In this document: positions 13,794 to 32,000 of the stretch, in pieces
Layout: every line of letters starts with the position of its first letter
Numbering within the stretch: the first letter of the stretch is position 1
Assembly (NCBI RefSeq): GCF_007748075.1
Contig: NZ_CP036280.1
Coordinates: 1,590,001-1,622,000 of the forward strand
DNA: 32,000 nucleotides
Source: Mucisphaera calidilacus
GTDB lineage: Bacteria; Planctomycetota; Phycisphaerae; Phycisphaerales; Phycisphaeraceae
Reading direction: 5' to 3'
Translations under genes and position numbers: made by a program
Notes under the pieces: model-generated
What the model saw: only the letters and a program-made list of their open reading frames with translations
The model's database searches: none
Told to the model about the DNA's origin: nothing

Positions 13794-15782
13794 TCAGGGC
13801 AGTGTCGTTTGGTTGGTGGCCTCGTTTGGCGTTGCGGGTTCACGGGGTGGGAGGTGGCGGTACCAGAACCAGTACATGCCTGTCAGGCCGATGAGGAAGA
13901 TCGGCAGGGTGATCAGGAAGTCGCGGTAGGCGCCGATGACCAGTTGCATGGGCAGCATGAAGAGGGAGATCTGCCAGGTCATGACGAACGGAACGGCGAT
14001 GATGTCGTTGCGGTGTTCTTTCTCCATAGCCCTGCGTTCGTCCTCGGGGAGCAAGGTTTTAAAGGGTCCCCAGAGGCCGAAGGGGCGTGTGGTTTTGTAG
14101 AAGTTGGCGAGTACGGCGGTGTCGGTGGGCTTGGTCAGGAGTGTGCCGATGATGGTGGAGAGGAGTGAGATCGTGGTGAGGATGGTGAACTGCTGAACGG
14201 CGGTCCATTCGGGGAAGTAGATGCGTTGGACGATGGCGGCGGTGAGACCGGCGACGGTGCCGACGACGACGCCGCCGGCGTTAAATCGCCACCAGTAGAG
14301 TCGGAGGATGCCGGGGATGGCGAGTCCGGAGCCGAGTCCCATGATGATCCAGTCCCAGATGTGGTTGATGCTGGTGGTGCTGTAGCCCATGGCGAAGCCT
14401 CCGGCGACGAGGACGACGCCGAAGATGTAGCTGGCGTAGATGAGTTCCTTGTTGCCGGCGTTGGGTCTGAGGTATGCCTGGTAGATATCGCGTGTCCAGT
14501 AGGCGGTCGCTCCGTTGACGGTGGAGTCGAAGGTGGACATGGAGGCGGCGATGAGTGCGACGAGGAGCAGGCCTTTGAGGCCCTGGGGGATCATCGTCAT
14601 CAGGACGGCGGGGAGGATGCGTTCGGGGTTGACCGTTCCCTCGTAGCTAAGGAGTTTGAGCTTGGTGGCCCAGTCCTCGCCGAGGAGCGTCTGGAGGTTG
14701 GTAACGAGTTCGGGATACAGCTGAGGCGCGTTGATGATGCCTGCGACGGCGTCTTCCCAGCGGCTCTTGGGCACTTCGCCGAGGGTCTGGCGGATCAGGT
14801 CGGCCGCTGTCGCGAGGACGGACTGGTCGGGGAAGGCGTCCTTGACCATGAAGAGCCCGAGGACGGCGAAGCCCATCATCATGGGCCAGCGGAACATGAT
14901 GAGCCAGCCCCAGAGGAAGCTGAGGAGTCCGCACTCGCGTTCGTTGCGTGCGCCGAAGTACTTGGGGTCGCCGCCGCTGGCGATGCCGGCCATGATGTTC
15001 CGGATGAGGTAGAAGAGTGCGAACATCGTGAGGTGTTCGTAGGCTTCGTAGCCGCTGGGCATGGTGGTGTGCCACTGGAGGCTGGTGGTGGTCCACTGCG
15101 TGCTGCCGGTGACCTCGTGTGCGAGGGTGGCGATGTCCCCCTCGTATCCGAGTTGTGTGGCGACGGCGATAAAGGTGACGGCGATGACGGCGAAGAGGAT
15201 GATGAAGGATTGGAAGATATCGGTGAAGACGACGCCGTAGAACCCCGAGGCCATGGTGTAGATGGTCGCGACGCCGAGCATTCCGATCGCGCAGGTTGAG
15301 GGTGAGAACGGGAGGAACATGGCGAGGAAGAGCCCGACCCCCTTGACCATGTAGCCGAGCATGCCGACGGTGGCGACGATGCAGGTGATGGCGGCCATGA
15401 CGCGAGTGAACTGCCCGCCCGGTCCGGAGCCGAAGCGGTAGATGTTCCACTCGGCCCCGGTCATGCAGTTGGATCGTCGGTGCCATTTGCCGGTCCAGAG
15501 GAGCATGAAGGCGAGGATGAGGACGGCTCCGCCTCGGAATTCGATGTAGAGGCCGCGAGGCCCGAGCATGTAGAGGAAGGAGACGATGATCATGGTCCCG
15601 GTCATGTCGAGCCAGGACGCCATGCCGGACATGCCCATGGCCCACCAGGGGATGGAGCGTCCGCCGAGGAAATAGTCTTCCAGGCTCTTGGCCGCCTTGT
15701 TCTTGAGGTAGTAGCCAAACGAGAGGAGGACGGTGAAGTAGACCGCGATGATCGCGTAGTCCAGGGTGCTGAGGTATTCCAC
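13794..15782 (-). CDS. Sodium:solute symporter family (SSF) transporter, 662 aa, GTG start
   Basis: Track ORF. Polytopic membrane protein with an SSF-like N-terminus: MEYLSTLDYAIIAVYFTVLLSFGYYLKNKAAKSLEDYFLGGRSIPWWAMGMSGMASWLD. Overlapping track ORFs are compositionally aberrant shadows. Confidence 0.8.
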   Translation of the reverse strand: MEYLSTLDYAIIAVYFTVLLSFGYYLKNKAAKSLEDYFLGGRSIPWWAMGMSGMASWLDMTGTMIIVSFLYMLGPRGLYIEFRGGAVLILAFMLLWTGKWHRRSNCMTGAEWNIYRFGSGPGGQFTRVMAAITCIVATVGMLGYMVKGVGLFLAMFLPFSPSTCAIGMLGVATIYTMASGFYGVVFTDIFQSFIILFAVIAVTFIAVATQLGYEGDIATLAHEVTGSTQWTTTSLQWHTTMPSGYEAYEHLTMFALFYLIRNIMAGIASGGDPKYFGARNERECGLLSFLWGWLIMFRWPMMMGFAVLGLFMVKDAFPDQSVLATAADLIRQTLGEVPKSRWEDAVAGIINAPQLYPELVTNLQTLLGEDWATKLKLLSYEGTVNPERILPAVLMTMIPQGLKGLLLVALIAASMSTFDSTVNGATAYWTRDIYQAYLRPNAGNKELIYASYIFGVVLVAGGFAMGYSTTSINHIWDWIIMGLGSGLAIPGILRLYWWRFNAGGVVVGTVAGLTAAIVQRIYFPEWTAVQQFTILTTISLLSTIIGTLLTKPTDTAVLANFYKTTRPFGLWGPFKTLLPEDERRAMEKEHRNDIIAVPFVMTWQISLFMLPMQLVIGAYRDFLITLPIFLIGLTGMYWFWYRHLPPREPATPNEATNQTTLP

Positions 15783-15847
15783 GGTCGCTTCTCGCTGTCC
15801 GGGTGAGGGCGTGTCGGGTGATCCGCGTTGATGATCCGGGGGGTGAG

Positions 15848-17335
15848 TTACGGTTTGTCGGGGCTCATAGCCTTGCGTGTCACGGAGATCTGACCGGGCA
15901 CGACCATGTCATCGAGGTCTTCGGTGTCCATGATGTATCCGACGATCTGGCTGTCCCAGTCGGCGTAGGTGTTGAGCCCCCCTTTCAGCCAGGTCACGAT
16001 GGTTTTCCCCGGCTTCCAGATCGGAACAATGGGTCGGAGGTTGTCGGCGTTGGAATTCCACGTGACGGGGGCCCACGCCCAGGTTGCGCCCTTGTCGGGT
16101 GTTCGGCCCATGAAGATCTCGTAGTGCTGGAGTTGTGCGTCGTCGCGTGGGTCGATGGGTGAGGAGATAAAGATGATGTCGGGGTTGTCGGGATGGATGG
16201 CCATGAGGCCGGTGTAGTCATTCTCGAACTTGTAGAGGTAGCCGCCGGCTTTGGCGATCTCGAAGACGTTCCACTTGCTGCCGTCCCATCGGCCGTAGAG
16301 GAAACGGTGGTCAAGGTCGCTGTTGTTGGCACGAGCGCTCATAGCGGCGACGGGGTGACCGTGCGGATCAAGGTGGAGGTCGATGGTCCATGCGTGGCGC
16401 ATCTCGACGCCGTTGAACTTCGCGCCGGTAGCGAGGACGGTGGTGAAATCAGGAGCGAGGTGCGAGCTGACGCGCCTGCGGCTGACGGACCCGAGGACAA
16501 GGCCGTCGGTGCGGTGGAGACGCTCACGACTCATGTAGCCGTGATAGATGCTGTTGTCCTCGTCGCGTGGATGTCCGTCGGTCAGGAGGAAGTGGAGTTT
16601 CTCGGGTGTGTGCGAGGCGTACTTCATGTAAGGACGCTGGCCGCGTGCGGTGTTTCCGTCCGGGCCCGTCAGGAGTTTGCCGCCGTAGCGGAAGGTGTCG
16701 CCCCGGTCGCTGGATACGAAGTAGTTGGGGTCGGAGTCGTCAGAACGGCTGAAGTTGTAGAGCTGGTGAACGCCGTCGCGGTCGGCGAGCTTGAAGATAT
16801 TGCTGTAGCAGATAATGACCTTGTTCTCGTAGGTCTGCTCGGGTTCCCACGCGGTGGGGTCGTGGGGATGGGTCGAGACGCGCCAGCGCATGATGCGGTC
16901 GCTGCTGTGGGTCGAGTAGATCGCGACGTATCGTCCGTCGTCACGGATGTGGAGGGCGGGGACGTCGTGGTCATCGGGTTGGAGTCGGTCGTGGAGTTCA
17001 AATGCACCGGCCTCGCCTGTTCTGAGGTTGTGCCAGAGCAGGTCGATGTCGCCGTGCTCGAAGGCGTCGGTTCTGGAGAAGGAGACAGATCCCATGAGCA
17101 TCATGGGGCCGTTGGGGTGGTCTGTATCGATGACGACGCGCTCGTCCTGATACCAGCACCAGGCGCCTGTGGGGACCCCGGCGGCCCGGGTGAAGTTGAT
17201 GAGCTTGTGCTCGCTGGCGCGGGCGCTGCCTGCCAGGAGCGTGACGAGGATGCAGGCTGCTGCGATTCCGGAGAGTGTGTAGCGTTTCGTGATCGCAGGC
17301 ATCGTGCTGATTCCCTTTCCTGAGCGGTTGGTCAT
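15848..17335 (-). CDS. Secreted BNR/Asp-box beta-propeller protein (BNR_4-like), paralog 1
   Basis: The track ORF 15848..17467 overlaps the upstream gene's stop at 17401, so I trimmed it to ATG 17335 (MTNRSGKG...); ATG 17302 (MPAITKRYTLSGIAAACILVTLLAGSARA) is an alternative. It has a signal peptide, an Asp-box-like SSDRGDTF and the motif LTDGHPRDEDNSIYHGY, which it shares with the 27768..29213 protein. Confidence 0.7.
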   Translation of the reverse strand: MTNRSGKGISTMPAITKRYTLSGIAAACILVTLLAGSARASEHKLINFTRAAGVPTGAWCWYQDERVVIDTDHPNGPMMLMGSVSFSRTDAFEHGDIDLLWHNLRTGEAGAFELHDRLQPDDHDVPALHIRDDGRYVAIYSTHSSDRIMRWRVSTHPHDPTAWEPEQTYENKVIICYSNIFKLADRDGVHQLYNFSRSDDSDPNYFVSSDRGDTFRYGGKLLTGPDGNTARGQRPYMKYASHTPEKLHFLLTDGHPRDEDNSIYHGYMSRERLHRTDGLVLGSVSRRRVSSHLAPDFTTVLATGAKFNGVEMRHAWTIDLHLDPHGHPVAAMSARANNSDLDHRFLYGRWDGSKWNVFEIAKAGGYLYKFENDYTGLMAIHPDNPDIIFISSPIDPRDDAQLQHYEIFMGRTPDKGATWAWAPVTWNSNADNLRPIVPIWKPGKTIVTWLKGGLNTYADWDSQIVGYIMDTEDLDDMVVPGQISVTRKAMSPDKP

Positions 17336-17400
17336 GGCTTGTGATCGCGTGTGTTCATGGCGAGAGGCTTGTGGAAGCCGTGATGGGCTTCGTGAGACGG

Positions 17401-19371
17401 CTAGCGTCCGTTGGTCGCGCATTGGATGGTGACGCGGGTGGTGCTGATCGGCTGTCCGGCCTGCCATTGTTTGCGCCCGGGTATCCAGTTGAGATATAGA
17501 TGATCGGTGACTCGGCCTCGGACCGGCTTGGGCTCGCTGGCGTAACGAACGTTCATGCGGTCTGCGCTGTCGATAAACAGGACGTCATCGATATTGACCT
17601 GGTGAATACCTGAACGCTCCATGGCCATCCCGGAGCATGAGGGTACGTGTGTGGCGTCGTTGTCGATGGTCAGGCTGCGGTACCCACGCTCGTAAACCCA
17701 TGTGGGATTGTTGAGTATGCCGATGAGTCCGGTGCCGACCTCGGTAGTGGTGACGTCCTTGAGGGCGGTGAGTTCTTCGCTGAAGGTGAATGTTCCATCG
17801 GGCTGTGATTCGACGGTGATCTGGCTTCGGATCGCGTCGCCATGGTCCACCACGAGTTTGGCTTTGAACGCGTTGTCGGTGTTCTCGATCTCGATATCGC
17901 GGAGTTTCGGAGAGGGCGCGCGGTCGTTGCCCTCGATGCGGACGTGACCGATTCCGCTGCGGAAATGGGGAGAGACGATGCGATCGAGTTGATTAGGGAC
18001 CGCCTGGATCATGATCTTGTTGCCCCAGCTGAGCGTGTGAACCGCTGAGGGTGTGCGGTTGAGCATCAGCTTGCCACCGTCGAGTCTCCGCACGCCGGTG
18101 TAGAGGTCGGGCCGGAGGGGCAATTCGTCGACTTCGTGAAGCAGGAGCCATGTCAGGCTTGTGTAATAGATGAGGTCCATCTGAGCGGACGGGAAGAAAT
18201 ACTCGCCCGGCGCGTAGACCGCCCCGCCATTGGGCCGGGACTGCATTTTGACCATCGTGTCGATACCACGCATGGCAATCGACCAGGCGTCGGGGTCGTT
18301 GGCGTAGACGGCCATGAGGACATGCTTGAAGTGCCAGTCCGGATTGCGGAAGAGCCGCCAGTCCTGACCGGAGGGGTAGACGAAGCCGCCGTCGGGCAGG
18401 ATGAACCACTTGATGTTTTCGTAGATCTGCGGGACGTTATAGAGCAGTGCCTCGGGGATTGCTCGGCCGGTCATCCGGTAGTCGAGGGCACACCCCAGGC
18501 CGAGGCTGTAGCAGGTCATGTAGTCGGGGTGGATGATGTTGTGGTTCTCGAGGGTAAAGTCCTCGTGGATGTTGGCCCCGAGGAACCAGTCCTTGACGGG
18601 CCTGTCGTCGACGATCACCTCGCAGGTCGCGTCGGAGGCTCGGAGGTGGGCGGAGATGGCCCACTGCGGGAAGGCCTCTCGCCAGACCTCGTTGCGTGGG
18701 TCGTCGGGCAGCAGGAGCATCGCGATCGAGATCACCTGGCTGTTCCAGCCGTTCTCTTCGGACTTCGTGTCGTTCTTGACGCGATGCGGGATTTTCGCGG
18801 CGGCGATCCGGTCGGCCTCGTGCGCCATGATGCTCTGGATGCCGCGTTGGAGGTCTTCGGGCAGGTCCTCCCAGATCCACCATGCACTGCGTCCGAGCAT
18901 GTGGGCCCAGTGGGCGGATTGCCAGTGGTCGCCCCACGGCTTGCCGTTGCTTGTAGGCCTGGTGCCGGTCTTGTGGGTCACGACGAGGTAGCGCATCATC
19001 GGGATGATGTGGTTGCTGAGAAGCTGCTCGCGCGACACACCAACCCGTTCGGCGTTGTAGGGTCCGAATCTGTAGAGGAAGGCGAGGCCAGCCACGGTGC
19101 CGGTGTTCGGCCTGATCCAGTGCTCGCCATGCTTGCTGTCGGTCAGGAGCCGGAGGGTGGGGTCGCCCTCCCAGGGCCGCGTCGTGCTGATGAGGTAACG
19201 AGCCTGATTCTCGACGACCTCGTAGACCTTCTGCCGGTACTCGGTCAAGGGCCCTTCAGCGGCAGCCGGCTGCCACCGCATCGGCATGACGTCGGCAGCC
19301 ATGATCAGCTGGCCGGTGAGGGTGAGCCATGCGATTAATGCGAGCACGACTATCTTTGGGGTGCTGTGCAT
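17401..19371 (-). CDS. Secreted 656-aa hypothetical protein; candidate polysaccharide lyase/hydrolase by context only
   Basis: Track ORF with signal peptide MHSTPKIVVLALIAWLTLTGQLIMAADV. The start lies 6 bp after the stop of the upstream gene. The W/H/Y-rich N-terminal two thirds (e.g. ENHNIIHPDYM) followed by a beta-rich C-terminal third resemble a toroid-plus-sandwich lyase architecture. I cannot assign a family. Confidence 0.75.
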   Translation of the reverse strand: MHSTPKIVVLALIAWLTLTGQLIMAADVMPMRWQPAAAEGPLTEYRQKVYEVVENQARYLISTTRPWEGDPTLRLLTDSKHGEHWIRPNTGTVAGLAFLYRFGPYNAERVGVSREQLLSNHIIPMMRYLVVTHKTGTRPTSNGKPWGDHWQSAHWAHMLGRSAWWIWEDLPEDLQRGIQSIMAHEADRIAAAKIPHRVKNDTKSEENGWNSQVISIAMLLLPDDPRNEVWREAFPQWAISAHLRASDATCEVIVDDRPVKDWFLGANIHEDFTLENHNIIHPDYMTCYSLGLGCALDYRMTGRAIPEALLYNVPQIYENIKWFILPDGGFVYPSGQDWRLFRNPDWHFKHVLMAVYANDPDAWSIAMRGIDTMVKMQSRPNGGAVYAPGEYFFPSAQMDLIYYTSLTWLLLHEVDELPLRPDLYTGVRRLDGGKLMLNRTPSAVHTLSWGNKIMIQAVPNQLDRIVSPHFRSGIGHVRIEGNDRAPSPKLRDIEIENTDNAFKAKLVVDHGDAIRSQITVESQPDGTFTFSEELTALKDVTTTEVGTGLIGILNNPTWVYERGYRSLTIDNDATHVPSCSGMAMERSGIHQVNIDDVLFIDSADRMNVRYASEPKPVRGRVTDHLYLNWIPGRKQWQAGQPISTTRVTIQCATNGR

Positions 19372-19377
19372 CAGTGA

Positions 19378-22263
19378 TCACTTACCTTTCTTGATCTGTC
19401 GGATCATCAGCGGTTGGTTGACGCGTTTGGCCCACTCCGTGAGATAGGCGTTCCATTTCTCGGAATCCGTGAATCGGTGAGCCCGGCTCCAGCCTGCTCC
19501 GGCCCAGTGGACTACGGATCCGCTCTCCGGCAGGTGGGTGAGGAGCAGGTGGTGGTTCTCGATCATCTCGTAACGAGCCTTGCCGGCGTTCTGGAGTACG
19601 ACGCCTGCGCCGAGGTCTCCGTTGCCCTTCGCGCCGAGCGGTCCCCACTGCCCGAGCCAGGTTCTGTCGGGTGATGGGCTGTGGGTGGCGGGGTTACGTC
19701 TGACCAGGCCGGTGGCGAACTCGATGGTGTCGGGGCTGCCGTCGATGGTGTAGTCGGTGGTGATGCGGGTGAGGTTGTGGCCCTTGTCGAGGCTGAGTCG
19801 CTGCGTCTCGCGGATGGTGATGCCGTTGATCCGGCGTTCGGGGAAGGTGAGTTCGAAGAGGGTGCGGACGGGCCCGTTGGCGAGGATGCGCCACAACGCG
19901 TAGTTTTCGCCACGGACGAACTGGCCGTCGATGACCAAGGCGGTCCCGCCGCAGCCGAGCGTGTTGCCGACCTTGTAGAGGTCGGCTCCTTCACCGCGGT
20001 CGGTGTGGTAGTCGTGTCCGGGCTGGTACCACTTCTCGACGATGGGGTAGGGGACCCGCTTGCTCCAGACGTCGATGCCGTTGCTGATGGTCTCGTTGCG
20101 GAGCGCCGGGCCGTACATCCGGTAGGCGATGCGGTCGCTTTCCCAGGCGAAGTCGTCCATGCGCGTGGGGACGAATTTGGCGTGCACGGGCGAGGGGTCG
20201 TTTTGTCCGCGTACGGGCGGGGTCGCTTGAAGGGTGAAGACGACGGTCTGGCTGGCGAGGAAGTGGTGCTGGAAGACCAGCAGGTCGGGCGTGCCGTTTG
20301 CGTCGGTGTCGATGACCTGTGAGGTGGCTTCGCGGCCCGTGCTGCCGTTGATCACGCGGATCGTCTGGCTGTCGGCGTGGGGCATGGCGTCTTCGATGCT
20401 CTGCCAGGGTATCTCAACGGTCTGGTGTCCTCGCGGCTGGTCAAGCGGGTTGGTGACCTCGATGCGCATCTGAGCGTGCTGGTTGGGGTCGGGCGCGACG
20501 AGGGGGCGTGTGAGGTTGGACCAGTCGCCGCTGAAGTAGGCGCGGTCGAGGTCATTCGCGAAGACGGTGTCGCCACGGTGCTCGGCCAGCTCGAGCAGGT
20601 CGTTGTAGATGTAGAAGTTGAGCCAGTAGGCGTAGTGGTATTTCTGCCTTGTGCTAAGCGGCTTCATCATGCCGGCGTAGGGAGAGAGGTCGAGTTGATT
20701 GGCTCGGGCGGCCTCGATGGCTTTCTGAGCGCGTGCCCACATGGCGTCGGTGACACGTTCGTGGAGGTCGCGATAACCCTGATAGTCCAGCTCGGCCGGG
20801 TCGATCAGAGTGGCGGTGTCGTCGATACCGAGCGAGATGAGGGAGACGCTACGCTCGTAGCGCTTGTCGCCGTCGAGGTCGTAGTCGATGCGGTCGAAGA
20901 AGCCGTTGTCGTCGGTGTCGGCGTATCGGATGGTGGGGAACTTCTTTGCCGTGTGTGAGCTGCGTGACCAGCCCTGGTAGAAGTGTGCGTCCTGGTCGAT
21001 GCGCCAGGCTCCCCACTCGGCGCCGTGGAGGTGGATGCGTCCGTCGAATCCTGCGGTGTAGAGTTTTCCTCCGCCTGAGAAGTCGCTGTCCCACTCGCCG
21101 CGGTCGCCGGAGCTGTCGCTCTGCGGGTGCCAGTCGATGCCGCCCTTGTAGAGGCCGATCTTGAAGGGGTCGTCGGGGTGGTAGACCTCGACGCGTTCCC
21201 ACCGCTCGCAGTCGTCGTCCTCGTCGAAGACCAGCCAGCACCGCCCCCATTCGCCGCGGTTGTAGATGAGGTCTCTAGCCGCGTCGTGGTCGGGGTAGAT
21301 CAGTTCGGTGAGTTGGCGCCAGCGTGGGTCGTAGAAGAACTTATCGGCTTCGCGGATGCCGCTGAGGCTCTTGAAGCGGTGGACCTGGTCGGCGTAGTCG
21401 AAGCCCTTGCCGGCGTAGTTGAGGGTCATGTCGAAGTCGAACTCGTTGCCGGGCACGGTGTCGTTGTCGAGGTCGGTGGCGATGGAGACCCAGTCGATGG
21501 TTGCGTCGACCACCATGCGCCGCCATTCGTCTTTGATGGCCGAGCCTTCTTCGGGCATGACGAATCCTTCGTGCGGTGCCGGCATCTGGCGGGGCGAGTC
21601 GACGAGTCGGATGGCGACCTCGCAGATGTCGTCGCCGTCCTCGTCGTAGAAGAGGAAGGGGTTCTCCCAGTTGTAGCGGAGGTCGGGCATGTTGTAGGTG
21701 GAGGTGTGTATTTTCAGGAACATGCTGTGGCCGAGGTAGTCCTCGAAGAAGTGTGATGTCCCGGTGTGTTCCCAGCACTTGAGCTTGTAGTCGTTCCAGT
21801 CGATGTAGTTCAGGACGCCGTCTTGGTCGGTGTCGACCATGACCATGTAGTGGCCGGGTCCCCAGAGCATGTCCTTGCGTGTGGCGTTCTCGACGACGAC
21901 CTGCAGGTCGGCGTTGTTGTCGCCGTCCTCATCGCCCCAGTCGATCATGAGGTCGTGTTCGTCGCCGTAGTTCCCGTCCTTGTTGCGGTCGATCATGAGG
22001 CAGTCGCTGTCGGTGTCGCCGACGAGGTCATCGAAGGTCATGTCGTCGTCGTCGTCGATCCACTGGACGGGCATGCCGTCGCGGAGCACCGTGCGCAGGA
22101 CGTCCGGATCGCCGTCGTTGTCGAGGTCTTCAAAGACGGGCACGGTTCCGACCGCCGGCATCAGGATGCGGTACTGGCGGACCATGGGGTCGGCGCGTGT
22201 GGAAGCCTGGAGGCCGAGCACGGCTGTGAGGATGAGGGTGGTGGTGCGTGTGATGATCTGCAT
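19378..22263 (-). CDS. Secreted 961-aa fusion protein: N-terminal Ca-binding FG-GAP-like repeat region plus C-terminal DUF4861-like domain
   Basis: The track ORF 19378..22401 overlaps kduD, so I trimmed it to ATG 22263 (MQIITRTTTLILTAVLGLQASTRADP, with GGAG about 10 nt upstream). N-terminal D-x-D-x-DG loops: FEDLDNDGDPDV, DRNKDGNYGD, DTDQDGVLNYID, YDEDGDDICE, ADTDDNGFFDRIDYDLDGD. The C-terminal roughly 365 aa (19381-20475) carry IEVTNPLDQPRGHQTVEIPW...MDDFAWESDRIAYRMYGPAL...DVWSKRVPYPIVEKWY...YHTDRGEGADLYKVGNTLGCGG, which I recognise as DUF4861-type. Confidence 0.75.
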   Translation of the reverse strand: MQIITRTTTLILTAVLGLQASTRADPMVRQYRILMPAVGTVPVFEDLDNDGDPDVLRTVLRDGMPVQWIDDDDDMTFDDLVGDTDSDCLMIDRNKDGNYGDEHDLMIDWGDEDGDNNADLQVVVENATRKDMLWGPGHYMVMVDTDQDGVLNYIDWNDYKLKCWEHTGTSHFFEDYLGHSMFLKIHTSTYNMPDLRYNWENPFLFYDEDGDDICEVAIRLVDSPRQMPAPHEGFVMPEEGSAIKDEWRRMVVDATIDWVSIATDLDNDTVPGNEFDFDMTLNYAGKGFDYADQVHRFKSLSGIREADKFFYDPRWRQLTELIYPDHDAARDLIYNRGEWGRCWLVFDEDDDCERWERVEVYHPDDPFKIGLYKGGIDWHPQSDSSGDRGEWDSDFSGGGKLYTAGFDGRIHLHGAEWGAWRIDQDAHFYQGWSRSSHTAKKFPTIRYADTDDNGFFDRIDYDLDGDKRYERSVSLISLGIDDTATLIDPAELDYQGYRDLHERVTDAMWARAQKAIEAARANQLDLSPYAGMMKPLSTRQKYHYAYWLNFYIYNDLLELAEHRGDTVFANDLDRAYFSGDWSNLTRPLVAPDPNQHAQMRIEVTNPLDQPRGHQTVEIPWQSIEDAMPHADSQTIRVINGSTGREATSQVIDTDANGTPDLLVFQHHFLASQTVVFTLQATPPVRGQNDPSPVHAKFVPTRMDDFAWESDRIAYRMYGPALRNETISNGIDVWSKRVPYPIVEKWYQPGHDYHTDRGEGADLYKVGNTLGCGGTALVIDGQFVRGENYALWRILANGPVRTLFELTFPERRINGITIRETQRLSLDKGHNLTRITTDYTIDGSPDTIEFATGLVRRNPATHSPSPDRTWLGQWGPLGAKGNGDLGAGVVLQNAGKARYEMIENHHLLLTHLPESGSVVHWAGAGWSRAHRFTDSEKWNAYLTEWAKRVNQPLMIRQIKKGK

Positions 22264-22303
22264 GGGCGTTGACTCCGAGAGAGCGTGTGAATCGATTCGA
22301 GGG

Positions 22304-23074: not shown

Positions 23075-23103
23075 GACGTTCTCCGGTGGTTCTGTCTGGT
23101 TAC

Positions 23104-24402: not shown

Positions 24403-24875
24403 GATTCGGTCTCGCGGGTGACTGCCTGAGGCCGTCGCCAGATCAGGGAGATTGTCCGCAGCAGCATGAGGAGCGCCCCGACCGGGATCGCGAGGTAGAC
24501 CCAGGATCGTGGCAGTTCAAGGACGGCGGTGTCGACGTCGTGCCCGCTGATCGTGAGGCCGACGCCATACCAGATCAGGACGAGGCAGCAGATGGCGACC
24601 AGGGTGTGAGCGATGCCTCGGGCGGCCGATCCCAGCCTGTCGGGCAGCCAGTCCACGAAGACGGCGACGACGAAGTGCTCGTTGCGTTTGAGCGCGAGCG
24701 AGGCCCCGACAAAGACCAGCCAGGTGAAGAGGATGGTGGCGAGTTCCTCGGTCCAGGCGGGCGGATCGGTGAGGATATAGCGTCCGATCACCTGGATCAG
24801 GGTGATGACGCACATCACGGCCAGCAGAGCTGCTCCGGCGACTTCCTCGAGATGATCGGCGAGTTTACGGATCAA
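24399..24875 (-). CDS. dctQ: TRAP transporter small permease subunit (DctQ family)
   Basis: 158 aa with four predicted TM segments, lying between the DctP- and DctM-type genes. It overlaps the dctP 3' end by 11 nt. Confidence 0.8.
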   Translation of the reverse strand: MIRKLADHLEEVAGAALLAVMCVITLIQVIGRYILTDPPAWTEELATILFTWLVFVGASLALKRNEHFVVAVFVDWLPDRLGSAARGIAHTLVAICCLVLIWYGVGLTISGHDVDTAVLELPRSWVYLAIPVGALLMLLRTISLIWRRPQAVTRETES

Positions 24876-25896: not shown

Positions 25897-25952
25897 GGGT
25901 CATGCCTGCCTGTCTTGAGTTTTGATGCTGTTATCCGGCGTGCGTGATTCGT

Positions 25953-26798
25953 TTATGCCAGGTCACCGATCGCCAGCATGTCCATATCGTTGAAGTCCTG
26001 ATTCTCGCCGCCCATGGCCCAGATGAATCGGTAGGCCGCGGTGCCGACGCCGCTGTGGATCGACCACGAGGGGGAGAGAACGGTCTGGTGGTTCCTGATC
26101 CAGAGGCTCCGGGTCTCGTCGGGGCGCCCCATGAGGTGGAGGACGCGCTGATCATCGGGCACGTCGAAGTAGGTGTAGACCTCGGTTCTGCGGTCGTGGG
26201 TGTGCGGCGGCATCGTGTTCCAGACGCTGCCGACGGCGAGTTCGGTGTATCCCATCACGAGCTGACAACTCGGGGCGCCGTTCTCGTGGATGTACTGGTT
26301 GATTGTCCGCTTGTTGGCCAGATCATTTGATCCGAGGTCAACGACGTTGGCTTGGGATTGTGTGATCAGAGCGGTCGGGTAGTCGGCGTGGGCGGGGTAG
26401 CTGTGGAGGTAGAAGATGGCGGGATCGACGATGTCGTCGCTGCTGAAGCGTATGTCTCGCGCCCCCCTGCCGATGTAGAGCGCATCGCGTCCGTCCAGCG
26501 CGTATTCCTGGCCATCGACGGACACCTTTCCGGGCCTGCCGATGTTGAGGACGCCGAGTTCGCGTCGCTGGCAGAGATAGTCGACCGAGAGCGTTCTTGT
26601 GTTGGGGAGGCCGAGCGGGTGAATGGTCGGGATTGCCGACCCGACGATGGCGCGGTCGAGGTCGGTCAGGTAGAGCCGGGTCTCGCCGTTCTGGAAAAGC
26701 CCGTCGAGGATGAAGGCCGATCTCAGCGACCGGGTGTTGAGTCCCCGGTAACGTTGAGCATCGGGGGTTTCGTGCGCGTGCAGCCTGGCGTCCATCAT
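25953..26798 (-). CDS. kduI: 5-dehydro-4-deoxy-D-glucuronate isomerase
   Basis: Strong resemblance to E. coli KduI from memory: RRELGVLNIG, KRTINQYI, CQLVMGYTELAVGSVWNTMPPHTHDRRTEVYTYF, LSPSWSIHSGVGTAAYRFIWAMGGENQDFNDMD. Confidence 0.92.
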   Translation of the reverse strand: MMDARLHAHETPDAQRYRGLNTRSLRSAFILDGLFQNGETRLYLTDLDRAIVGSAIPTIHPLGLPNTRTLSVDYLCQRRELGVLNIGRPGKVSVDGQEYALDGRDALYIGRGARDIRFSSDDIVDPAIFYLHSYPAHADYPTALITQSQANVVDLGSNDLANKRTINQYIHENGAPSCQLVMGYTELAVGSVWNTMPPHTHDRRTEVYTYFDVPDDQRVLHLMGRPDETRSLWIRNHQTVLSPSWSIHSGVGTAAYRFIWAMGGENQDFNDMDMLAIGDLA

Positions 26799-26856
26799 GT
26801 CTGGTCTTCAATCGTTGGAGAGAGTGGTGTGTTCCACGCCATGCCGATTCCGGGCC

Positions 26857-27630
26857 TCAAGCCGAGCTCAGCACCGGATTCTGTCCGAGCGCAGAGGAGA
26901 GTTCGCTGGCCGCGGCAGTGACCTGCGCGGCGATCACGGGGATTTTTTTCTTGGGGAAGCGTTCGGTGGTGGCGGTGATGCCGATGGCGCCGACCGGTTG
27001 CTCGTAGGCATCGAAGACGGTCGCTGCGAGGCAGCGGACGCCCTCGAAATACTCCTCGTCGTCGATCGCGTAGCCGCGTTTTCGGATCGTGATGAGGTCG
27101 TCCTCGAGGCTGTCGACCCCGCTGTGCGTCGCATCGGTGCGGACTTCGAACTGGATCCGCTCGAGGACGTCCTGTCGGTCCTGGGGTTTCATCGCTGCGA
27201 GCACCGCCTTGCCGGTCGCTGAACAGTGGATGGAGACCAGGGTGCCGGGTCGGCTGGCGACACGGATCGGGCTGGGGCTGTCGATGACTTTGGTGATGAG
27301 CATCTGCGCATCGGCGCGGACCGCCATGTGTGCGGTCTCGCCGGTGTCGTGAGAGAGGCGTTTGAGAATGGGATCGGCCTGGGTGTTGACCTCGACGGAG
27401 TTGAGTGCCTGAAGGCCCAGGTGGAGCAGCCCGACGCCTGAGCGGTAGCGGCCGTCGATCTCTTCGAGCATCCCCTCGTCGACCAGTGTCCGGAGCATTC
27501 GGAACGCGGTGGTTCGCGGCATGCTCAGCTGACGCGCGACCTCGCTGGTGGAGACCGGGCGGGTTTCGCCGGCGAGCCACTTGAGCGCCGAGCAGGCCTT
27601 GGACAGGTTGGGGATCGAGTATTTGTTCAT
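26857..27630 (-). CDS. IclR-family transcriptional regulator (KdgR-like by context)
   Basis: 257 aa. N-terminal wHTH (VSTSEVARQLSMPRTTAFRMLRTLVDEGMLE) plus a C-terminal IclR effector domain. It heads the kduI-TRAP-kduD gene string. Confidence 0.85.
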   Translation of the reverse strand: MNKYSIPNLSKACSALKWLAGETRPVSTSEVARQLSMPRTTAFRMLRTLVDEGMLEEIDGRYRSGVGLLHLGLQALNSVEVNTQADPILKRLSHDTGETAHMAVRADAQMLITKVIDSPSPIRVASRPGTLVSIHCSATGKAVLAAMKPQDRQDVLERIQFEVRTDATHSGVDSLEDDLITIRKRGYAIDDEEYFEGVRCLAATVFDAYEQPVGAIGITATTERFPKKKIPVIAAQVTAAASELSSALGQNPVLSSA

Positions 27631-27641
27631 ATCTGAATTAC

Positions 27642-27669
27642 TTGTTTCTCATACGGAACATCTTATAAT
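27642..27669 (+). promoter_or_regulatory. Sigma70-like promoter candidate for the plus-strand BNR/acyltransferase/GxGYxYP unit
   Basis: -35 TTGTTT (27642-27647), 16-nt spacer, perfect -10 TATAAT (27664-27669). It lies about 100 nt upstream of ATG 27768. Confidence 0.3.
27643..27660. promoter_or_regulatory. Imperfect palindrome TGTTTC-N6-GGAACA, candidate IclR/KdgR-type operator
   Basis: Reads tgtttc tcatac ggaaca in the divergent intergenic region. The half-site equals the GAAACA/TGTTTC core of enterobacterial KdgR boxes, but in the opposite arrangement. It overlaps the putative -35 and spacer of the promoter listed next. Confidence 0.3.
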
Positions 27670-27767
27670 CCGCCGCATGGAAGTCAACCGTGGCCTCTGT
27701 GCCCGACTTCTTGATGTTGATCGCCTTTCGTGTTCTGACTCGATGCCCCCGATCCCCGAGGTTCTTC

Positions 27768-29213
27768 ATGAAGTGCTGGTGCCTGGTTGAACGCCCTTGT
27801 GTGTGTGCCCTAATTGTGTTCGTCGTGCTGCTGGCGAGCGCGTGTTCGCGTGGCGTGCGGCCTGATGCGGGCCTTGATCCGGGGCTTGCGTTCGAGCGTG
27901 GGCGGGTGGTCGACCTGGCCCCGAACGGCTCGTGGGTGTGGCACACGGATCCGGTCACGATCTGGAGCGGGGGCCGGCTCTACTACGCCTACGTCGACAG
28001 CACGACGCGCCAGATCATGGTGAACTCCTATGGCCCGGGGGATGGGAGCCTCAGCCCGATCAATCTCTCGACCGAGCGTTCGGTCGCGGTGGACGATCAC
28101 GACCACCCGTCGATCTCGATCCTGCCGGACGGTCGTCTGCTGCTGGTCTACTGCCGTCACGGGCGCGACCGCGGGTTTTACTTTCGGCACGCGAGCGGCC
28201 CGACGCCACGCGCTCTCGACGACCTGAGCGATGAGCGTTTCCACGGTTTTGAGGCCAACACCTGCTACACGAACGTGTACTACCTGCGTGACGAGCGGCG
28301 GCTTCACTACTTCGGCCGCGGCGTCCACAGCAAGCCGACGTGGCTGACCTCGACCGATCTCGGTCAGACGTGGAGCGACGCGACGCCTTGGATCATCCCC
28401 GAGCACAACGCGGTGCGACCCTACGTGCATTACGCGTCGAACGGCCGCGACCGTATCGACATGATCTATACCGACGGGCATCCGCGTGACGAGAAGAACT
28501 CGATCTATCACGCGTACTACCAAGACGACGCGTTCTATCGTGCGGACGGCCGTCTCATCGTCGCGGCGGATGATCTGCCGATGGTGCACGAGCATGGCCA
28601 GAAAGGCGGTTACGTCTACCGCTACTCCGAGCGTCCCTGGGACACCTCGCGGGGCCCGGATGACTGGATCCCGTTTGGGCGGGCGTGGGTCTGGGATATC
28701 GAGCACGATGAATCGGGCAACCCCGTCTGTGTGTTCACGGTTCAGGTTGACGCGCCCGAGGGCTCGCCGTGGACGGACGGGCGGATCTATTACTACTACG
28801 GGTGGTGGGATGGCGCCGTCTGGAACAAGCGGCTGATCGCGAAGGCGGGCAACGCCCTGTATCGGGGCGAGGACGATTTCGCGGGCGGGATTGCGCTGGA
28901 TCCCGATGACCCGTCGCGTCTGTTCCTCTCGTCGAATGCGGTAGCGCCGTTCGATCTCACGTCACTCGACACGCGGATCAAGGGCGACGACGCCTACAGC
29001 CTTTACCGGGTTCGTTTCGATCGTGCGACGGGCAGAGTCGAATCCGAACCGTTCTATTCGGCGGAGGGCGAGATGATCATCCGCCCGTTTGTTCCGGCGG
29101 GTGACGGCCCGGTGAAGTCGGTTGTCTGGATGCAGGGGCCGAACTACCCCAACATGCGCACCTATCCGACGCGGATCGCCGGCTGGTTCTCCGGCACCGA
29201 GCAGAACGACTAA
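27768..29213 (+). CDS. BNR/Asp-box beta-propeller protein (BNR_4-like), paralog 2; possible lipoprotein
   Basis: The track ORF starts at 27690. I prefer ATG 27768 (GAGG 6 nt upstream), which gives MKCWCLVERPCVCALIVFVVLLASAC. Canonical Asp-box STDLGQTW (28350-28373). The motif TDGHPRDEKNSIYH (28470-28511) is shared with the 15848..17335 protein. Confidence 0.75.
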   Translation: MKCWCLVERPCVCALIVFVVLLASACSRGVRPDAGLDPGLAFERGRVVDLAPNGSWVWHTDPVTIWSGGRLYYAYVDSTTRQIMVNSYGPGDGSLSPINLSTERSVAVDDHDHPSISILPDGRLLLVYCRHGRDRGFYFRHASGPTPRALDDLSDERFHGFEANTCYTNVYYLRDERRLHYFGRGVHSKPTWLTSTDLGQTWSDATPWIIPEHNAVRPYVHYASNGRDRIDMIYTDGHPRDEKNSIYHAYYQDDAFYRADGRLIVAADDLPMVHEHGQKGGYVYRYSERPWDTSRGPDDWIPFGRAWVWDIEHDESGNPVCVFTVQVDAPEGSPWTDGRIYYYYGWWDGAVWNKRLIAKAGNALYRGEDDFAGGIALDPDDPSRLFLSSNAVAPFDLTSLDTRIKGDDAYSLYRVRFDRATGRVESEPFYSAEGEMIIRPFVPAGDGPVKSVVWMQGPNYPNMRTYPTRIAGWFSGTEQND

Positions 29214-29252
29214 CCCTGACCACGGGCCCGCGGTGGCGAACGGAGACCGTCG

Positions 29253-30341
29253 GTGACAACAGCAGCACCTGATCTGGCCAGCGTGCCGAGTGATCGAGAT
29301 GTACTGATCGATGTGCTGCGTGCCATCGGCCTGGTCATGATTGTTCTGGCTCACACGATCCCGTCAGGCTGGACGATCTTCCAGCTTCGGAATTTCGACG
29401 TGCCCCTGATGGCCTTTGTCGCGGGGATGTCGTTCGCCGTCACAGCGCCGGAGCGGCTCAGTCTGGGGCCTTATTACCTCAAGCGGATCGGGCGTCTGCT
29501 CGTGCCGACCTACACGTTCCTGCTGCTGTTCTTCGGCATCACGGCGCTGTGCTGCTGGCTGATCGATCAGCCGTTCGCGTTGCAGGGCGGGTGGTACCAG
29601 ACGTTCATGCTGACCAATCACCCGCCCTCGATCGGCTACGTCTGGATCATCCGCGTCTTCGTGCTCCTCGCTGCGACCGCCCCGCTGCTGCACTGGGTCT
29701 GGATGCGTACGCCCAAGGCGGTCTTTGCTTCGAGCCTGATTGTCGCGTACGCGGGTTACGAGGTTGCCTTCTACAACATCCCCCGTCCCGAGACGGTCTG
29801 GGTGCGGACGCTGCTGTTCACCTACATCTACTTCGCGATCTCGTACGCGCTGATGTTCGGCGTGGGTATGCTCTGCACGAGGCTGAGTGCGTTGCAGCGT
29901 TTTCTTGCGGTGATCTTCTTTTCGATCGTCTTCGTGATCTGTATTTTCTACTTTGCCCGGGGAGACGAGATCACGCTGAGGATGCAGAGCTACAAGTACC
30001 CCCCTCGTCTTTACTATGTGTCCTGGGGCATGCTGATGTCGTTGACACTCAGCCTTGTCCTGATGCGGCTGTGGCTTCCCGGCGTGTTGATGTCGGCTGT
30101 CCGTTTCCTGAGCTCGGCGTCGCTGTGGATCTATCTCTGGCACATCGCGGTGCTGTATATCATCCGCTGGCATCTCGGGGGCGTCGAGGTGCTCAAGAAC
30201 CACTGGATCAAGTTCGGCGTGGTGCTGGTGACCGCATCCCTGATCACGCTGGCACACCGCCTGGTATTCCGTTGGCTCAGTCGGCGGCTGGAGCCGCTCC
30301 CGCCCCTCGCGGGCTTCGTGCGACTGGCGTTTCTCAAGTAA
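29253..30341 (+). CDS. Acyltransferase family 3 integral membrane protein (putative O-acyltransferase)
   Basis: GTG start with GGAG 7 nt upstream. The N-terminus DVLIDVLRAIGLVMIVLAHT is typical of acyltransferase_3, and the protein has about 10 hydrophobic segments. Confidence 0.75.
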   Translation: MTTAAPDLASVPSDRDVLIDVLRAIGLVMIVLAHTIPSGWTIFQLRNFDVPLMAFVAGMSFAVTAPERLSLGPYYLKRIGRLLVPTYTFLLLFFGITALCCWLIDQPFALQGGWYQTFMLTNHPPSIGYVWIIRVFVLLAATAPLLHWVWMRTPKAVFASSLIVAYAGYEVAFYNIPRPETVWVRTLLFTYIYFAISYALMFGVGMLCTRLSALQRFLAVIFFSIVFVICIFYFARGDEITLRMQSYKYPPRLYYVSWGMLMSLTLSLVLMRLWLPGVLMSAVRFLSSASLWIYLWHIAVLYIIRWHLGGVEVLKNHWIKFGVVLVTASLITLAHRLVFRWLSRRLEPLPPLAGFVRLAFLK

Positions 30342-30353
30342 CAGGAGGCCTCC

Positions 30354-32000
30354 ATGCCCTGCACGGATCAAACGCTGTCTTGCGCGGGGCTTGTTGTCCT
30401 GGCGCTGTCTTTCTTCGTCAGTCTGTCGCCGCCATCCGTGCGTGCGGATTCGATACCGAGCGACGTCGATGACGCCATCACGTATCTCGACCTGACCTAC
30501 CTCAATCACCTTGACCTTGCGGATGGCGCACAGGCGCGTGAAGCCTGGGACACGCTTCACATGGTCGCCACCGTTCAGGGGATTGTGAACAGGGACCGGC
30601 CCCGGCTGTATATCCGGTTCATCGAGCGTGCGGATGACTTCTGGTGGGCCTATCTCCGAGAGGAGGGGCAGTGGCTTGATGGCCGGGAGGTGGTCAGGGT
30701 CCGCTCGCTCGAGCAGTTGCTCGCACGCTTCGAGCACCTGCTCAAGGGCATCGTGGTCTACCGCGAGCGGCCGTGGGTGAGTTCGAATCTGGCGAGCACG
30801 ATCGCCGGTGTCGAAGACCGTGTCGCGTTGCGGTATTCGGACCGACGCGATTCTGTCTGCCAGCGCGTGCTGCGCAGCGGCCTGGATTTTGTCGGTGATC
30901 GTTTCGACCTGTCCGACGAGCGGGGACGACCGATCTGGAGCGTCGAGGATGAGAAGCTCGGGACCACATCGGGCAGCGTCAAGTGTGATGCTTACCGGTG
31001 GCTCAGGCGTCATTACCTGGATACGGGCCGGGTTTCGGCAGAGTACATGGGCTACTACATCGATGCCTTCTGGCTGACGGATCCGGACAAGAGCCAGGTT
31101 TCGAACTGCACCCTGTCGAATCACGATTTCTTCATCGCTCAACGCTCGCTGTTCTTCGATCTTCATGTCTGGGGGGACGAAACGCCCGTCGACGATCCCT
31201 CACAGGCCGAGGGCACGGACGTGGCGACGCTTCACCACCTTCTGCACGGCATGCAGGAGCACGCCGACGGGGAGATTTATCACATCGGCGGGTTTACGCC
31301 CTGGGCTTGGAAGTACACGAGTCATCCGGGTGCCGGTTCCCGGCACGGTCCGGTCCCGACCGAGTGGAAGATGGTGCGCGAGACATCGGCCTACAACGGG
31401 TACATCGATGCCGACGCGCTGGGGTTCTCGGGCATGGCCAACGCCTCGTTCTATCAGCACTTCCCGCTGCGTGAGCACTACCCTCAGAACACGAAGCCGA
31501 CGGATGCTGATCTGCGTCGATCCGGGTTCCTGTCGGGTGACAACCGTGTGGCGGATCAGACCTATGTTTTGCTCTACATGGGCGACTACGACTCCGCGGC
31601 GTGGTTCTATCAGCGGATGCCGGATCTGTATAACGACTCCGCTCGGGGTGATCTGACCTGCAACTGGGCCTTCAGCCCGATCCTGGACCGTCGTGCCCCG
31701 CACGTGATGCATTACGTGCGCACGCGGAGCACCGATCGTGACTGGTTCGTCACCAGCGACAACGGTGCCGGCTATCTCAACCCGTCGATGCTGACCGCGC
31801 CACGGCAGAACCCGGCGATCGAGGATGGGTGGGAAGCGTGGATCCGCCATAACCAGCAGGCGTCGAGGCGTTACGACCTGACGATCGTCGGATTCCTGAT
31901 CGACGGGTTTGCGCCAGACATGGGCCGCAAGGGCATGGATGGTTATTCGCGTATCAGCCCCGATGGCATCGTTCGGAATCAGTACAGCGAACGGTTCGGC
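30354..32000 (+). CDS. Secreted GxGYxYP-family protein (putative glycoside hydrolase), 3' end beyond window; not in the ORF track
   Basis: ATG 30354 with AGGAGG at 30343-30348. My own translation gives 549 codons to the window end without a stop, and the track lists no plus-strand ORF in this frame. Signal peptide MPCTDQTLSCAGLVVLALSFFVSLSPPSVRA. The family motif reads SDNGAGYLNP (GAGYLNP at 31764-31784). Confidence 0.75.
   Translation, partial: MPCTDQTLSCAGLVVLALSFFVSLSPPSVRADSIPSDVDDAITYLDLTYLNHLDLADGAQAREAWDTLHMVATVQGIVNRDRPRLYIRFIERADDFWWAYLREEGQWLDGREVVRVRSLEQLLARFEHLLKGIVVYRERPWVSSNLASTIAGVEDRVALRYSDRRDSVCQRVLRSGLDFVGDRFDLSDERGRPIWSVEDEKLGTTSGSVKCDAYRWLRRHYLDTGRVSAEYMGYYIDAFWLTDPDKSQVSNCTLSNHDFFIAQRSLFFDLHVWGDETPVDDPSQAEGTDVATLHHLLHGMQEHADGEIYHIGGFTPWAWKYTSHPGAGSRHGPVPTEWKMVRETSAYNGYIDADALGFSGMANASFYQHFPLREHYPQNTKPTDADLRRSGFLSGDNRVADQTYVLLYMGDYDSAAWFYQRMPDLYNDSARGDLTCNWAFSPILDRRAPHVMHYVRTRSTDRDWFVTSDNGAGYLNPSMLTAPRQNPAIEDGWEAWIRHNQQASRRYDLTIVGFLIDGFAPDMGRKGMDGYSRISPDGIVRNQYSERFG

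Follow-up and report, generated by a model that had tools for sequence, protein, structure and literature searches.

The 32,000-nucleotide stretch of the Mucisphaera calidilacus genome analysed here (NZ_CP036280.1, positions 1,590,001 to 1,622,000; hereafter the window, with positions counted from its first letter) carries a region of about 18 kb that is probably a regulated divergon for the use of an acidic, glucuronate-type glycan by a lyase route. The region consists of two arms, namely ten co-directional genes on the minus strand and three divergent genes on the plus strand (Table 1). An initial annotation had described it as a uronate-polysaccharide utilisation locus around kduI, kduD, an IclR-family regulator and a tripartite ATP-independent periplasmic (TRAP) transporter, and this description holds. 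Indeed, the 13 genes that it named are all there, with strong family scores and at positions that agree with those given to within a few codons; KduI lies above the cut-off of its model, KduD lies within 11 bits of its own, and the DctPQM set is complete. Lyase-route loci feeding KduI and KduD are well known, and in this sense the pathway is a familiar one.

The family assignments of the proteins, their conserved catalytic residues and fold, the gene fusions and the synteny are what was observed; from these we infer what each protein does and in which sequence, what the substrate is and how the genes are jointly regulated, as follows. Secreted or periplasmic enzymes would cut the glycan by β-elimination: two BNR_4 proteins, as seven-bladed propellers, would break an X-α1,4-uronate bond, giving a Δ4,5-unsaturated uronate, and a 656-residue protein with a predicted toroid and β-sandwich would act as a second lyase or a related β-eliminating enzyme. 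A fusion protein (an N-terminal domain of about 590 residues followed by DUF4861) and a GxGYxYP protein would process the unsaturated oligosaccharides to free unsaturated uronate or 5-keto-4-deoxyuronate, one or the other probably filling the role of the glycoside hydrolase (GH) families GH88/GH105. The TRAP transporter would then import the free unsaturated uronate or the open-chain 5-keto-4-deoxyuronate, and KduI and KduD, assigned to their families by homology and with a presumed specificity, would convert it to 2-keto-3-deoxygluconate (KDG). KdgK and Eda, encoded outside the window, would finish the pathway, and the IclR/KdgR-like protein, judging from the layout, may control both arms. 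Our best guess for the substrate is a glycan with rhamnose-glucuronic acid (Rha-GlcA) linkages, be it gum-arabic/arabinogalactan-protein-like, ulvan-like or a microbial or algal exopolysaccharide; the characterised members of the polysaccharide lyase (PL) families PL24, PL25 and PL42 all cut between rhamnose (or rhamnose 3-sulfate, Rha3S) and O4 of glucuronic or iduronic acid.

Core uronate catabolism and layout of the locus

KduI passes the NCBIfam equivalog NF002091 (389.3 bits against a cut-off of 250). KduD falls just under the cut-off of TIGR01832 (328.1 bits against 338.85), which is the best of 230 short-chain dehydrogenase/reductase (SDR) models for this protein. The complete DctPQM set is placed between kduI and kduD. 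The regulator does not reach the cut-off of the KdgR equivalog (137 bits against 275), and repeated KdgR-box operators were not found, the only candidate being one imperfect palindrome upstream of iclR; by model scores, the protein is a member of the IclR family only. The SSF symporter matched no NCBIfam equivalog. In agreement with the initial annotation, neither kdgK (PfkB-type) nor the gene for 2-keto-3-deoxy-6-phosphogluconate (KDPG) aldolase (eda, also called kdgA) is in the window, and no member of GH88/GH105 or of the classical pectate, alginate and heparin lyase Pfam families was found in it. Sulfatase, rhamnosidase and rhamnose-catabolic genes were not found in the window either, and Rfam and tRNA scans of it returned no RNA genes.

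With the most plausible start codons, the intergenic distances across the ten minus-strand genes range from -11 to 65 bp, and the divergent gap between the two arms measures 170 bp. No terminator-like site was found on the minus strand of the gene cluster. A single σ70-like match was found in positions 13300-32000 (18.7 kb; 3.8 expected by chance), and it lies at 27687-27660, just upstream of iclR. The layout fits co-expression of the minus-strand arm, since ten co-directional genes are separated by gaps of at most 65 bp, with no terminator-like site and with the single σ70-like match upstream of the first gene. A possible operator for autoregulation, given as a lead only, is the imperfect palindrome TGTTTC-N6-GGAACA (27643-27660), which lies between the σ70-like match and the start of iclR. 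A shared operator was considered and dropped as evidence: the palindrome is unique in the window and the other intergenic gaps contain no inverted repeats. GTTC/GAAC half-sites are present upstream in the two syntenic loci (L003 and L075, see below), in different arrangements.

All five soluble extracytoplasmic proteins, as well as DctP, have a hydrophobic stretch at the N-terminus with an AxA-type or lipobox-like site behind it, as judged by eye and hydropathy rather than with SignalP; the signal peptides proposed initially for the five soluble proteins are thus confirmed at this level. KduI, KduD and the IclR regulator have no such export segment. In three genes (those for BNR_4 #1, the fusion protein and BNR_4 #2) the true start is likely later than the start of the open reading frame (ORF), and for BNR_4 #1 it is probably at 17335. 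The NCBI model of the fusion protein (961 aa) begins at M47, which gives it a signal peptide.

Secreted candidate enzymes

Both BNR_4 proteins exceed the gathering threshold of their Pfam family (PF15892, 27.3 bits), with 48.8 bits for BNR_4 #1 on the minus strand and 82.5 bits for BNR_4 #2 on the plus strand; they are 28% identical to each other. FoRham1, the L-rhamnose-α1,4-D-glucuronate lyase on which PL42 (formerly GH145) was founded, falls within PF15892 (PMC8377490), and so do the PL25 ulvan lyases (PMC13193363). A profile of 35 clade members matches the PL25 ulvan lyase 5UAM (E 3.5e-8, ~36 bits), the only solved structure that it reaches, and PL42 chains are absent from the PDB matches of BNR_4 #1, BNR_4 #2 and the clade profile. 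In the PL25 enzyme PLSV_3936, His123, His143, Tyr188 and Arg204 act as acid, neighbouring histidine, base and neutraliser, respectively (PMC8377490). These four residues align with H137, H157, Y193 and R210 of BNR_4 #2 and correspond to H167, H187, Y221 and R241 of BNR_4 #1, and the four columns are invariant in all 35 clade sequences. Furthermore, a GH88 domain (PF07470) is carried by six BNR_4 homologues among the matches listed, and the BNR_4-GH88 fusion of L075 scores 466 bits on the hidden Markov model (HMM) of the clade. Because GH88 acts only on Δ4,5-unsaturated uronyl ends, the BNR_4 clade fused to it would make such ends, and the fusion argues strongly that these proteins are lyases. 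On the basis of homology, residues and fusions, the two BNR_4 proteins are predicted to be β-eliminating lyases of the PL24/25/42 kind. They are provisionally filed under the BNR_4 lyase superfamily and not under any specific CAZy family, because their link to PL25 is only marginal and they are far from canonical PL42; the clade HMM gives only 13.5 bits on the canonical PL42 domain of L003.

The 656-residue protein had been regarded as an orphan, a label that it loses here: it belongs to a large conserved family with a predicted polysaccharide-lyase fold. Among 8,000 candidates scored, 452 homologues share 50-58% identity with it and span Planctomycetota, Verrucomicrobiota and Omnitrophota. 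At least 289 species genomes contain a relative, among them those of Bacteroidota (Flavobacterium fluvii, Niabella, Bacteroides), and a profile search returned 1,352 representatives of 50%-identity clusters. None of 40 family members matched a Pfam family (E up to 1). The AlphaFold2 (AF2) model of the protein (predicted local distance difference test, pLDDT, 91.4; predicted template modelling score, pTM, 0.89) consists of an α-helical toroid (~residues 41-411) followed by a β-sandwich (426-651). The Foldseek comparison that the initial annotation had proposed leads to polysaccharide lyases: the leading matches are PL8 hyaluronate, chondroitin AC and xanthan lyases (E 1.5e-11 to 1e-8), followed by PL12/15/17/33/35/39 (with E values ranging to 1e-6). 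The best 33 PDB matches are all polysaccharide lyases, apart from a dermatan-sulfate epimerase (6hzn, E 4e-7), and the longest alignments with lyases extend over ~710 columns and both domains. The toroid domain alone also matches GH154-type β-D-glucuronate dehydratase (9nwf, 9o4u; E ~1e-4).

In 29 superfamily members sharing 21-49% identity, W146, E205, D247 and D271 are invariant, H133, N207, E275, N276, H277, H281, Y284, D337, W338 and R565 are conserved in at least 93%, and Y332 is kept in 20 of the 29. The adjacent Asn-His, the further His, the Tyr and the Arg resemble the catalytic sets of toroid lyases; the set described for PL40, by comparison, is Asn245/Trp246, Tyr305 and His485 (PMC12915356). 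From its predicted fold and its fusion partners, the 656-residue protein most likely serves as a further lyase, perhaps of the exo type, or as a related enzyme working by β-elimination.

These fusion partners are lyases or GH88. In L003, a metagenome-assembled genome (MAG) of Phycisphaeraceae, the 656-aa domain is fused to two BNR_4 domains, the second of which is a true PL42, matching BT3686 (5MUK) at 8e-143 and FoRham1 at 5e-38. In L002, the 656-aa domain is followed by Lyase_8_N and Lyase_8 in the same ORF and then by a BNR_4 gene, and in P0380 the family domain is fused to GH88. Moreover, GH88 and DUF2264 genes lie directly upstream of a 656-aa homologue in ~6 Bacteroidota loci, and a sulfatase gene lies directly downstream of a homologue in 13 loci.

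Several details of these loci were recorded in addition. The L003 fusion (9803-14455) is one 1,550-aa ORF in which the signal peptide is followed by the 656-aa domain, then by a divergent BNR_4 domain without the second catalytic His and lastly by a canonical PL42 domain ~60% identical to BT3686. The L002 gene (8900-14068) is a 1,722-aa stop-free ORF that opens with an aspartate/ornithine carbamoyltransferase N-domain, followed by a DUF4861 fragment, the 656-aa domain and PL8; the carbamoyltransferase part looks like an assembly or frame artefact of the MAG. In the Bacteroidota loci L066-L074, GH88, DUF2264 and the 656-aa homologue form a conserved trio adjoining SusC/D genes, DUF2264 being a further uncharacterised family that travels with the 656-aa protein.

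The fusion protein combines two families. Its DUF4861 part (ORF residues 649-1000) scores 271 bits against a Pfam threshold of 22.3, and on the NCBIfam model BT_3233_fam the protein falls marginally below the cut-off (310.8 bits against 320). Bacteroides thetaiotaomicron requires BT3233 to grow on three glycosaminoglycans (GAGs), chondroitin sulfate, hyaluronan and heparin (PMC8121099), all of which yield unsaturated uronate. Searches against the PDB gave nothing significant for a DUF4861 profile of eight sequences (best E 0.7) and only chance-level matches for the fusion protein as a single sequence (best E 0.4). The N-terminal 570 residues define a separate family, of which more than 2,260 homologues share 52-65% identity; most of these stand alone and are ~590 aa long, and DUF4861 is present in only a few close relatives. 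The FG-GAP-like label given earlier to this protein finds no Pfam support in it: the N-terminal domain has no Pfam match (E up to 1), and FG-GAP_3 matches are sub-threshold in 10 of 32 family members (best E 0.002). Its sequence is that of an acidic, Ca-loop-rich β domain, and its AF2 model (pLDDT 82.7, pTM 0.83) has a β-rich body and a C-terminal helical bundle. A search with this model found no structural neighbour in the PDB (best E 0.05, template-modelling score, TM, ~0.1) and no β-propeller.

Members of the N-terminal family occur in varied surroundings. The family member of Parabacteroides merdae is indexed in 900 blocks of the contig collection, and the polysaccharide utilisation locus (PUL) around its gene encodes SusC/D, a GH123_N-like protein, DUF5107, a BD-FAE esterase, AP_endonuc_2 and GH43. 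In a Chondrinema locus the gene directly follows SusC/D, in L084 it follows a BNR_4 gene, and in L157 it follows a toroid protein resembling the 656-aa protein and GxGYxYP. As a side observation, the P. merdae gene (10001-11776 in L081-L083, contigs of P. merdae and of the human gut) indicates that the family is very common in gut assemblies, and among these contigs are variants in which the upstream genes are swapped for an FAD oxidoreductase and a pyruvyl transferase. Three of the uncharacterised families of the window co-occur a second time, in a different way, in locus L157 (253-10912), where a 468-aa toroid-only protein related to the 656-aa family (28% identity), GxGYxYP and the N-terminal family are accompanied by a lactonase, a sugar transporter and an enolase-superfamily dehydratase.

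On the plus-strand arm, BNR_4 #2 is followed by an acyltransferase and a GxGYxYP protein. Proteins of the Acyl_transf_3 type usually O-acylate surface glycans. In the GxGYxYP protein (80 bits), whose gene is cut by the window end, each of the three Pfam domains of its family was detected, and no sequence match was found among all PDB chains, BT2193 included. Elsewhere, contig L167 (10001-12603) encodes a 66%-identical BNR_4 homologue followed by Acyl_transf_3, as in positions 27801-30341 of the window, and BNR_4-Acyl_transf_3 looks like a conserved two-gene module.

Table 1. Features of the locus, in positions of the window
Feature	Position	Strand	Basis and remarks
SSF symporter, 662 aa	13794-15782	-	Pfam SSF 4.4e-26; last gene of the minus-strand cluster
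BNR_4 #1, predicted polysaccharide lyase with signal peptide	ORF 15848-17467; likely start M45 at 17335	-	Pfam BNR_4 48.8 bits
656-aa secreted protein, predicted lyase-type, uronate-acting	17401-19371	-	toroid + β-sandwich model; no Pfam/NCBIfam match
N-terminal family/DUF4861 fusion protein, 1007-aa ORF	19378-22401; start 22263 gives 961 aa (NCBI entry P0241)	-	DUF4861 at residues 649-1000
DUF4861 (BT3233-family) domain, C-terminal part of the fusion protein	19402-20457	-	Pfam DUF4861 1.9e-80
N-terminal ~590-aa domain of the fusion protein, with signal peptide	20482-22263	-	>2,260 homologues; no Pfam match
KduD-like SDR, 2-dehydro-3-deoxy-D-gluconate 5-dehydrogenase	22304-23074	-	TIGR01832 3.3e-98, 328 bits
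TRAP transporter (DctM; DctQ; DctP lipoprotein)	23104-24402; 24399-24875; 24865-25896	-	Pfam 5e-110; 8e-36; 6e-76
KduI, 5-dehydro-4-deoxy-D-glucuronate isomerase	25953-26798	-	NCBIfam NF002091 9.8e-117, 389 bits
IclR-family regulator (KdgR-like)	26857-27630	-	IclR_C 7e-42, HTH_IclR 1e-12; first gene of the minus-strand cluster
Divergent control region (candidate)	27643-27687	-	σ70-like match 27687-27660; imperfect palindrome 27643-27660
BNR_4 #2, predicted polysaccharide lyase, lipoprotein-like	ORF 27690-29213; NCBI start 27801 gives 470 aa (P0121)	+	Pfam BNR_4 82.5 bits
Acyl_transf_3 membrane acyltransferase	29253-30341	+	Pfam 3.7e-21
GxGYxYP secreted protein, putative glycoside hydrolase	30354 to beyond 32000 (gene cut by the window end)	+	GxGYxYP_C 2.8e-22, GxGYxYP_N 5e-7

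Outside the locus, positions 1-13470 of the window are occupied on the minus strand by one unbroken ORF, which has at least 4,490 codons and continues past the start of the window. It corresponds to the N-terminal third of the 13,493-aa gene Pan265_03220, and its N-terminus carries a LEPR-xLL-type motif (…LEPLEPRVLLSG…). The plus-strand ORFs in 1-13000 have no Pfam matches and were rejected as antisense artefacts; this giant minus-strand gene accounts for them and for the GC skew of +0.3 in that part of the window.

Conservation of the neighbourhood and rival explanations

The co-occurrence search suggested by the initial annotation found two syntenic loci. L003 has the order iclR-kduI-dctPQM-kduD-(N-terminal family + DUF4861)-656-aa homologue, with a KDPG aldolase gene inserted after kduD, and is the only one of 80 genome loci with the 656-aa family to show the full arrangement of the window. 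L075, a Lentisphaerae MAG, encodes IclR, KduI, KduD, KDPG aldolase, DUF2961, BNR_4-GH88, a 656-aa homologue and DUF4861. DUF4861 adjoins the 656-aa gene in L001, L002, L003, L068 and L075. The linkage of the 656-aa and N-terminal families to kduI/kduD is clade-specific and not general, because both families occur elsewhere in other contexts. The N-terminal family is present, with no GH88 in reach, in the window and in L003, and the converse holds for L075; these three loci give a weak hint that the N-terminal family could be a functional replacement for GH88.

A number of results weigh against the proposal of a lyase-route divergon. Outside three loci, the 656-aa and N-terminal families seldom adjoin kduI/kduD: kduI is a neighbour of the 656-aa family in only 2 of the 80 genome loci, and 1 of 80 metagenome loci each has kduI or DUF4861 beside the N-terminal family. 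The pair of BNR_4 and Acyl_transf_3 is also seen in L167, a contig without uronate-catabolic neighbours. As single sequences in phmmer, the BNR_4 proteins matched no solved structure in the PDB, those of PL24/25/42 included, and the 5UAM profile match spans only ~150 of 440 positions. The 656-aa protein had no PDB match either as a single sequence or as a profile (E up to 10), its model aligns with lyases at Foldseek TM-scores of only 0.45-0.57 and ~10% sequence identity, and the four acidic residues of its conserved core (E205, D247, D271 and E275) are not what is usually seen in a uronate lyase; the predicted fold would also be compatible with a dehydratase, an epimerase or a hydrolase. The BNR_4 and 656-aa lyase activities, exact clades included, are predictions from sequence and model. 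Finally, neither the ulvan nor the gum-arabic model is complete in the window, where no GH88/GH105, sulfatase or rhamnose-catabolic gene was found.

The points concerning the 656-aa protein lead to the alternative that it is a uronate-modifying enzyme, i.e. an oligosaccharide uronate dehydratase, a C5-epimerase or the missing unsaturated-uronyl hydrolase, which we hold to be unlikely though worth keeping in mind. The dehydratase variant would make the Δ4,5 end from saturated GlcA, like GH154/BcGDH or P29_PDnc. The toroid matches to GH154-type dehydratase and to dermatan-sulfate epimerase and the acidic core residues speak for it, and fusion or adjacency to GH88 and to true lyases would suit a helper enzyme equally; GH154 itself was reassigned from hydrolase to dehydratase owing to its co-localisation with GH88/GH105 (PMC12269599). 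However, the best and longest structural matches, those over ~710 columns and both domains, are lyases, the conserved Asn-His...His...Tyr and Arg form the usual lyase set, and the P29_PDnc residue pattern was not found. Indeed, P29_PDnc, an ulvan oligosaccharide dehydratase, was tried as a member of the families of the window and set aside: at most 5 of its 9 conserved or mutated positions are matched in any collected protein, and no link was shown. A lyase is the most economical reading of the 656-aa protein; a dehydratase, an epimerase or a hydrolase is possible. A wider proposal is that the region holds two unclassified families both acting in unsaturated-uronate chemistry, the 656-aa family as a new PL family or uronate dehydratase and the N-terminal family as a new-fold enzyme that replaces GH88/GH105 together with DUF4861; we put it forward tentatively, as a conjecture that is doubtful in this full form.

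The initial annotation had gone further and seen a complete, biochemically undescribed system in which every candidate depolymerase comes from an uncharacterised family, which now appears improbable. Part of this claim stands. The literature searched defines no activity for DUF4861, GxGYxYP, the N-terminal family or the 656-aa family, the latter two also being without a Pfam model, and the window was found free of GH88/GH105 and classical PL Pfam families. The other part does not, since BNR_4 contains the characterised PL25 and PL42 families, whose catalytic residues are kept here, and the 656-aa protein has a known lyase architecture in its model. Nor was completeness borne out: no unsaturated-uronyl hydrolase was found in the window, and kdgK and eda lie elsewhere, whereas the L003 and L075 clusters carry KDPG aldolase.

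Two further explanations concern the purpose and the substrate of the locus, and we consider both quite improbable. According to one of them, the locus, or its plus-strand arm (BNR_4 #2, Acyl_transf_3 and GxGYxYP), serves the turnover or modification of the cell's own matrix instead of foraging. Acyltransferases of this type typically act on surface glycans, and the recurrence of the BNR_4 #2-acyltransferase pair in L167, without uronate-catabolic neighbours, may leave room for such a role. Mucisphaera calidilacus Pan265, which is of marine origin, forms a viscous colloid during growth and is surrounded by a dense extracellular matrix (PMC8882080). On the other hand, the arm is divergently joined, across the 170-bp gap, to a catabolic operon with regulator, transporter, KduI and KduD, and syntenic loci in other phyla pair the same families with KDPG aldolase and GH88, i.e. 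with catabolism. According to the other explanation, the region is specifically an ulvan utilisation locus and the BNR_4 proteins are PL25-type ulvan lyases. The host is marine (PMC8882080), and the clade profile reaches a single solved structure, a PL25 ulvan lyase whose catalytic residues are conserved in the clade; kduI and kduD are found in ulvan loci too. Against this, the PL25 similarity is marginal (36 bits), searches of the window brought up no gene for a sulfatase, a rhamnosidase, GH105/GH88 or rhamnose catabolism, and L003 carries a PL42 domain close to BT3686, a gum-arabic Rha-GlcA enzyme.

Under the preferred reading of a lyase-route divergon, the locus ties an unstudied, GH88-fused BNR_4 clade to lyase chemistry, and the Pfam-less 656-aa family gains a lyase-type predicted fold as well as PL42, PL8 and GH88 as fusion partners. 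DUF4861 is physically fused to a second Pfam-less family of more than 2,000 members, which is also present in human-gut Parabacteroides PULs. These proteins are concrete, cheap targets for enzyme discovery and could explain how unsaturated uronates are handled without GH88/GH105. If the N-terminal family does replace GH88/GH105, its relevance would extend well beyond planctomycetes, given how common the family is in gut Parabacteroides PULs.

Comparison with known systems

Among known systems, PL42 (FoRham1 and BT3686, in Bacteroides arabinogalactan-protein/gum-arabic loci) shares with the window the BNR_4 Pfam family and the seven-bladed propeller class, as well as the same His/His/Arg(/Tyr) residues of the anterior pocket, and forms an unsaturated GlcA product that feeds KduI/KduD. 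A true PL42 is, in addition, fused to the 656-aa family in the syntenic L003. In contrast, the BNR_4 proteins of the window have no significant sequence match to any PL42 structure. The PL25 enzyme PLSV_3936 (5UAM/5UAS) likewise has catalytic residues that align with invariant columns of the window clade, and both hosts are marine; with regard to ulvan utilisation loci, the window was found to contain no sulfatases, no GH78/GH105/GH88 and no PL28/PL40.

The toroid and β-sandwich lyases (PL8, PL12/15/17/21/33/35/39/40) have the same two-domain architecture as the model of the 656-aa protein, which differs from them in having no profile-level sequence match; its conserved Asn-His, His, Tyr and Arg are putative counterparts of their catalytic residues. 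The DUF4861 family is shared with BT3233 of Bacteroides thetaiotaomicron, whereas in the window this domain is fused behind a secreted domain of ~590 aa. The GxGYxYP protein shares its Pfam domains with BT2193 (PDB 3SGG), whose proposed triad is Glu272/Asp331/Asp333, and GxGYxYP has been proposed as a glycoside hydrolase family found in PULs (PMC4071793).

Like the KdgR/KduI/KduD module of pectin, alginate and GAG degraders, the window clusters an IclR-family regulator, KduI, KduD and a dedicated importer; it differs from that module in that KdgF, KdgK and KdgA are not part of it and in that the importer is a TRAP transporter encoded between kduI and kduD.

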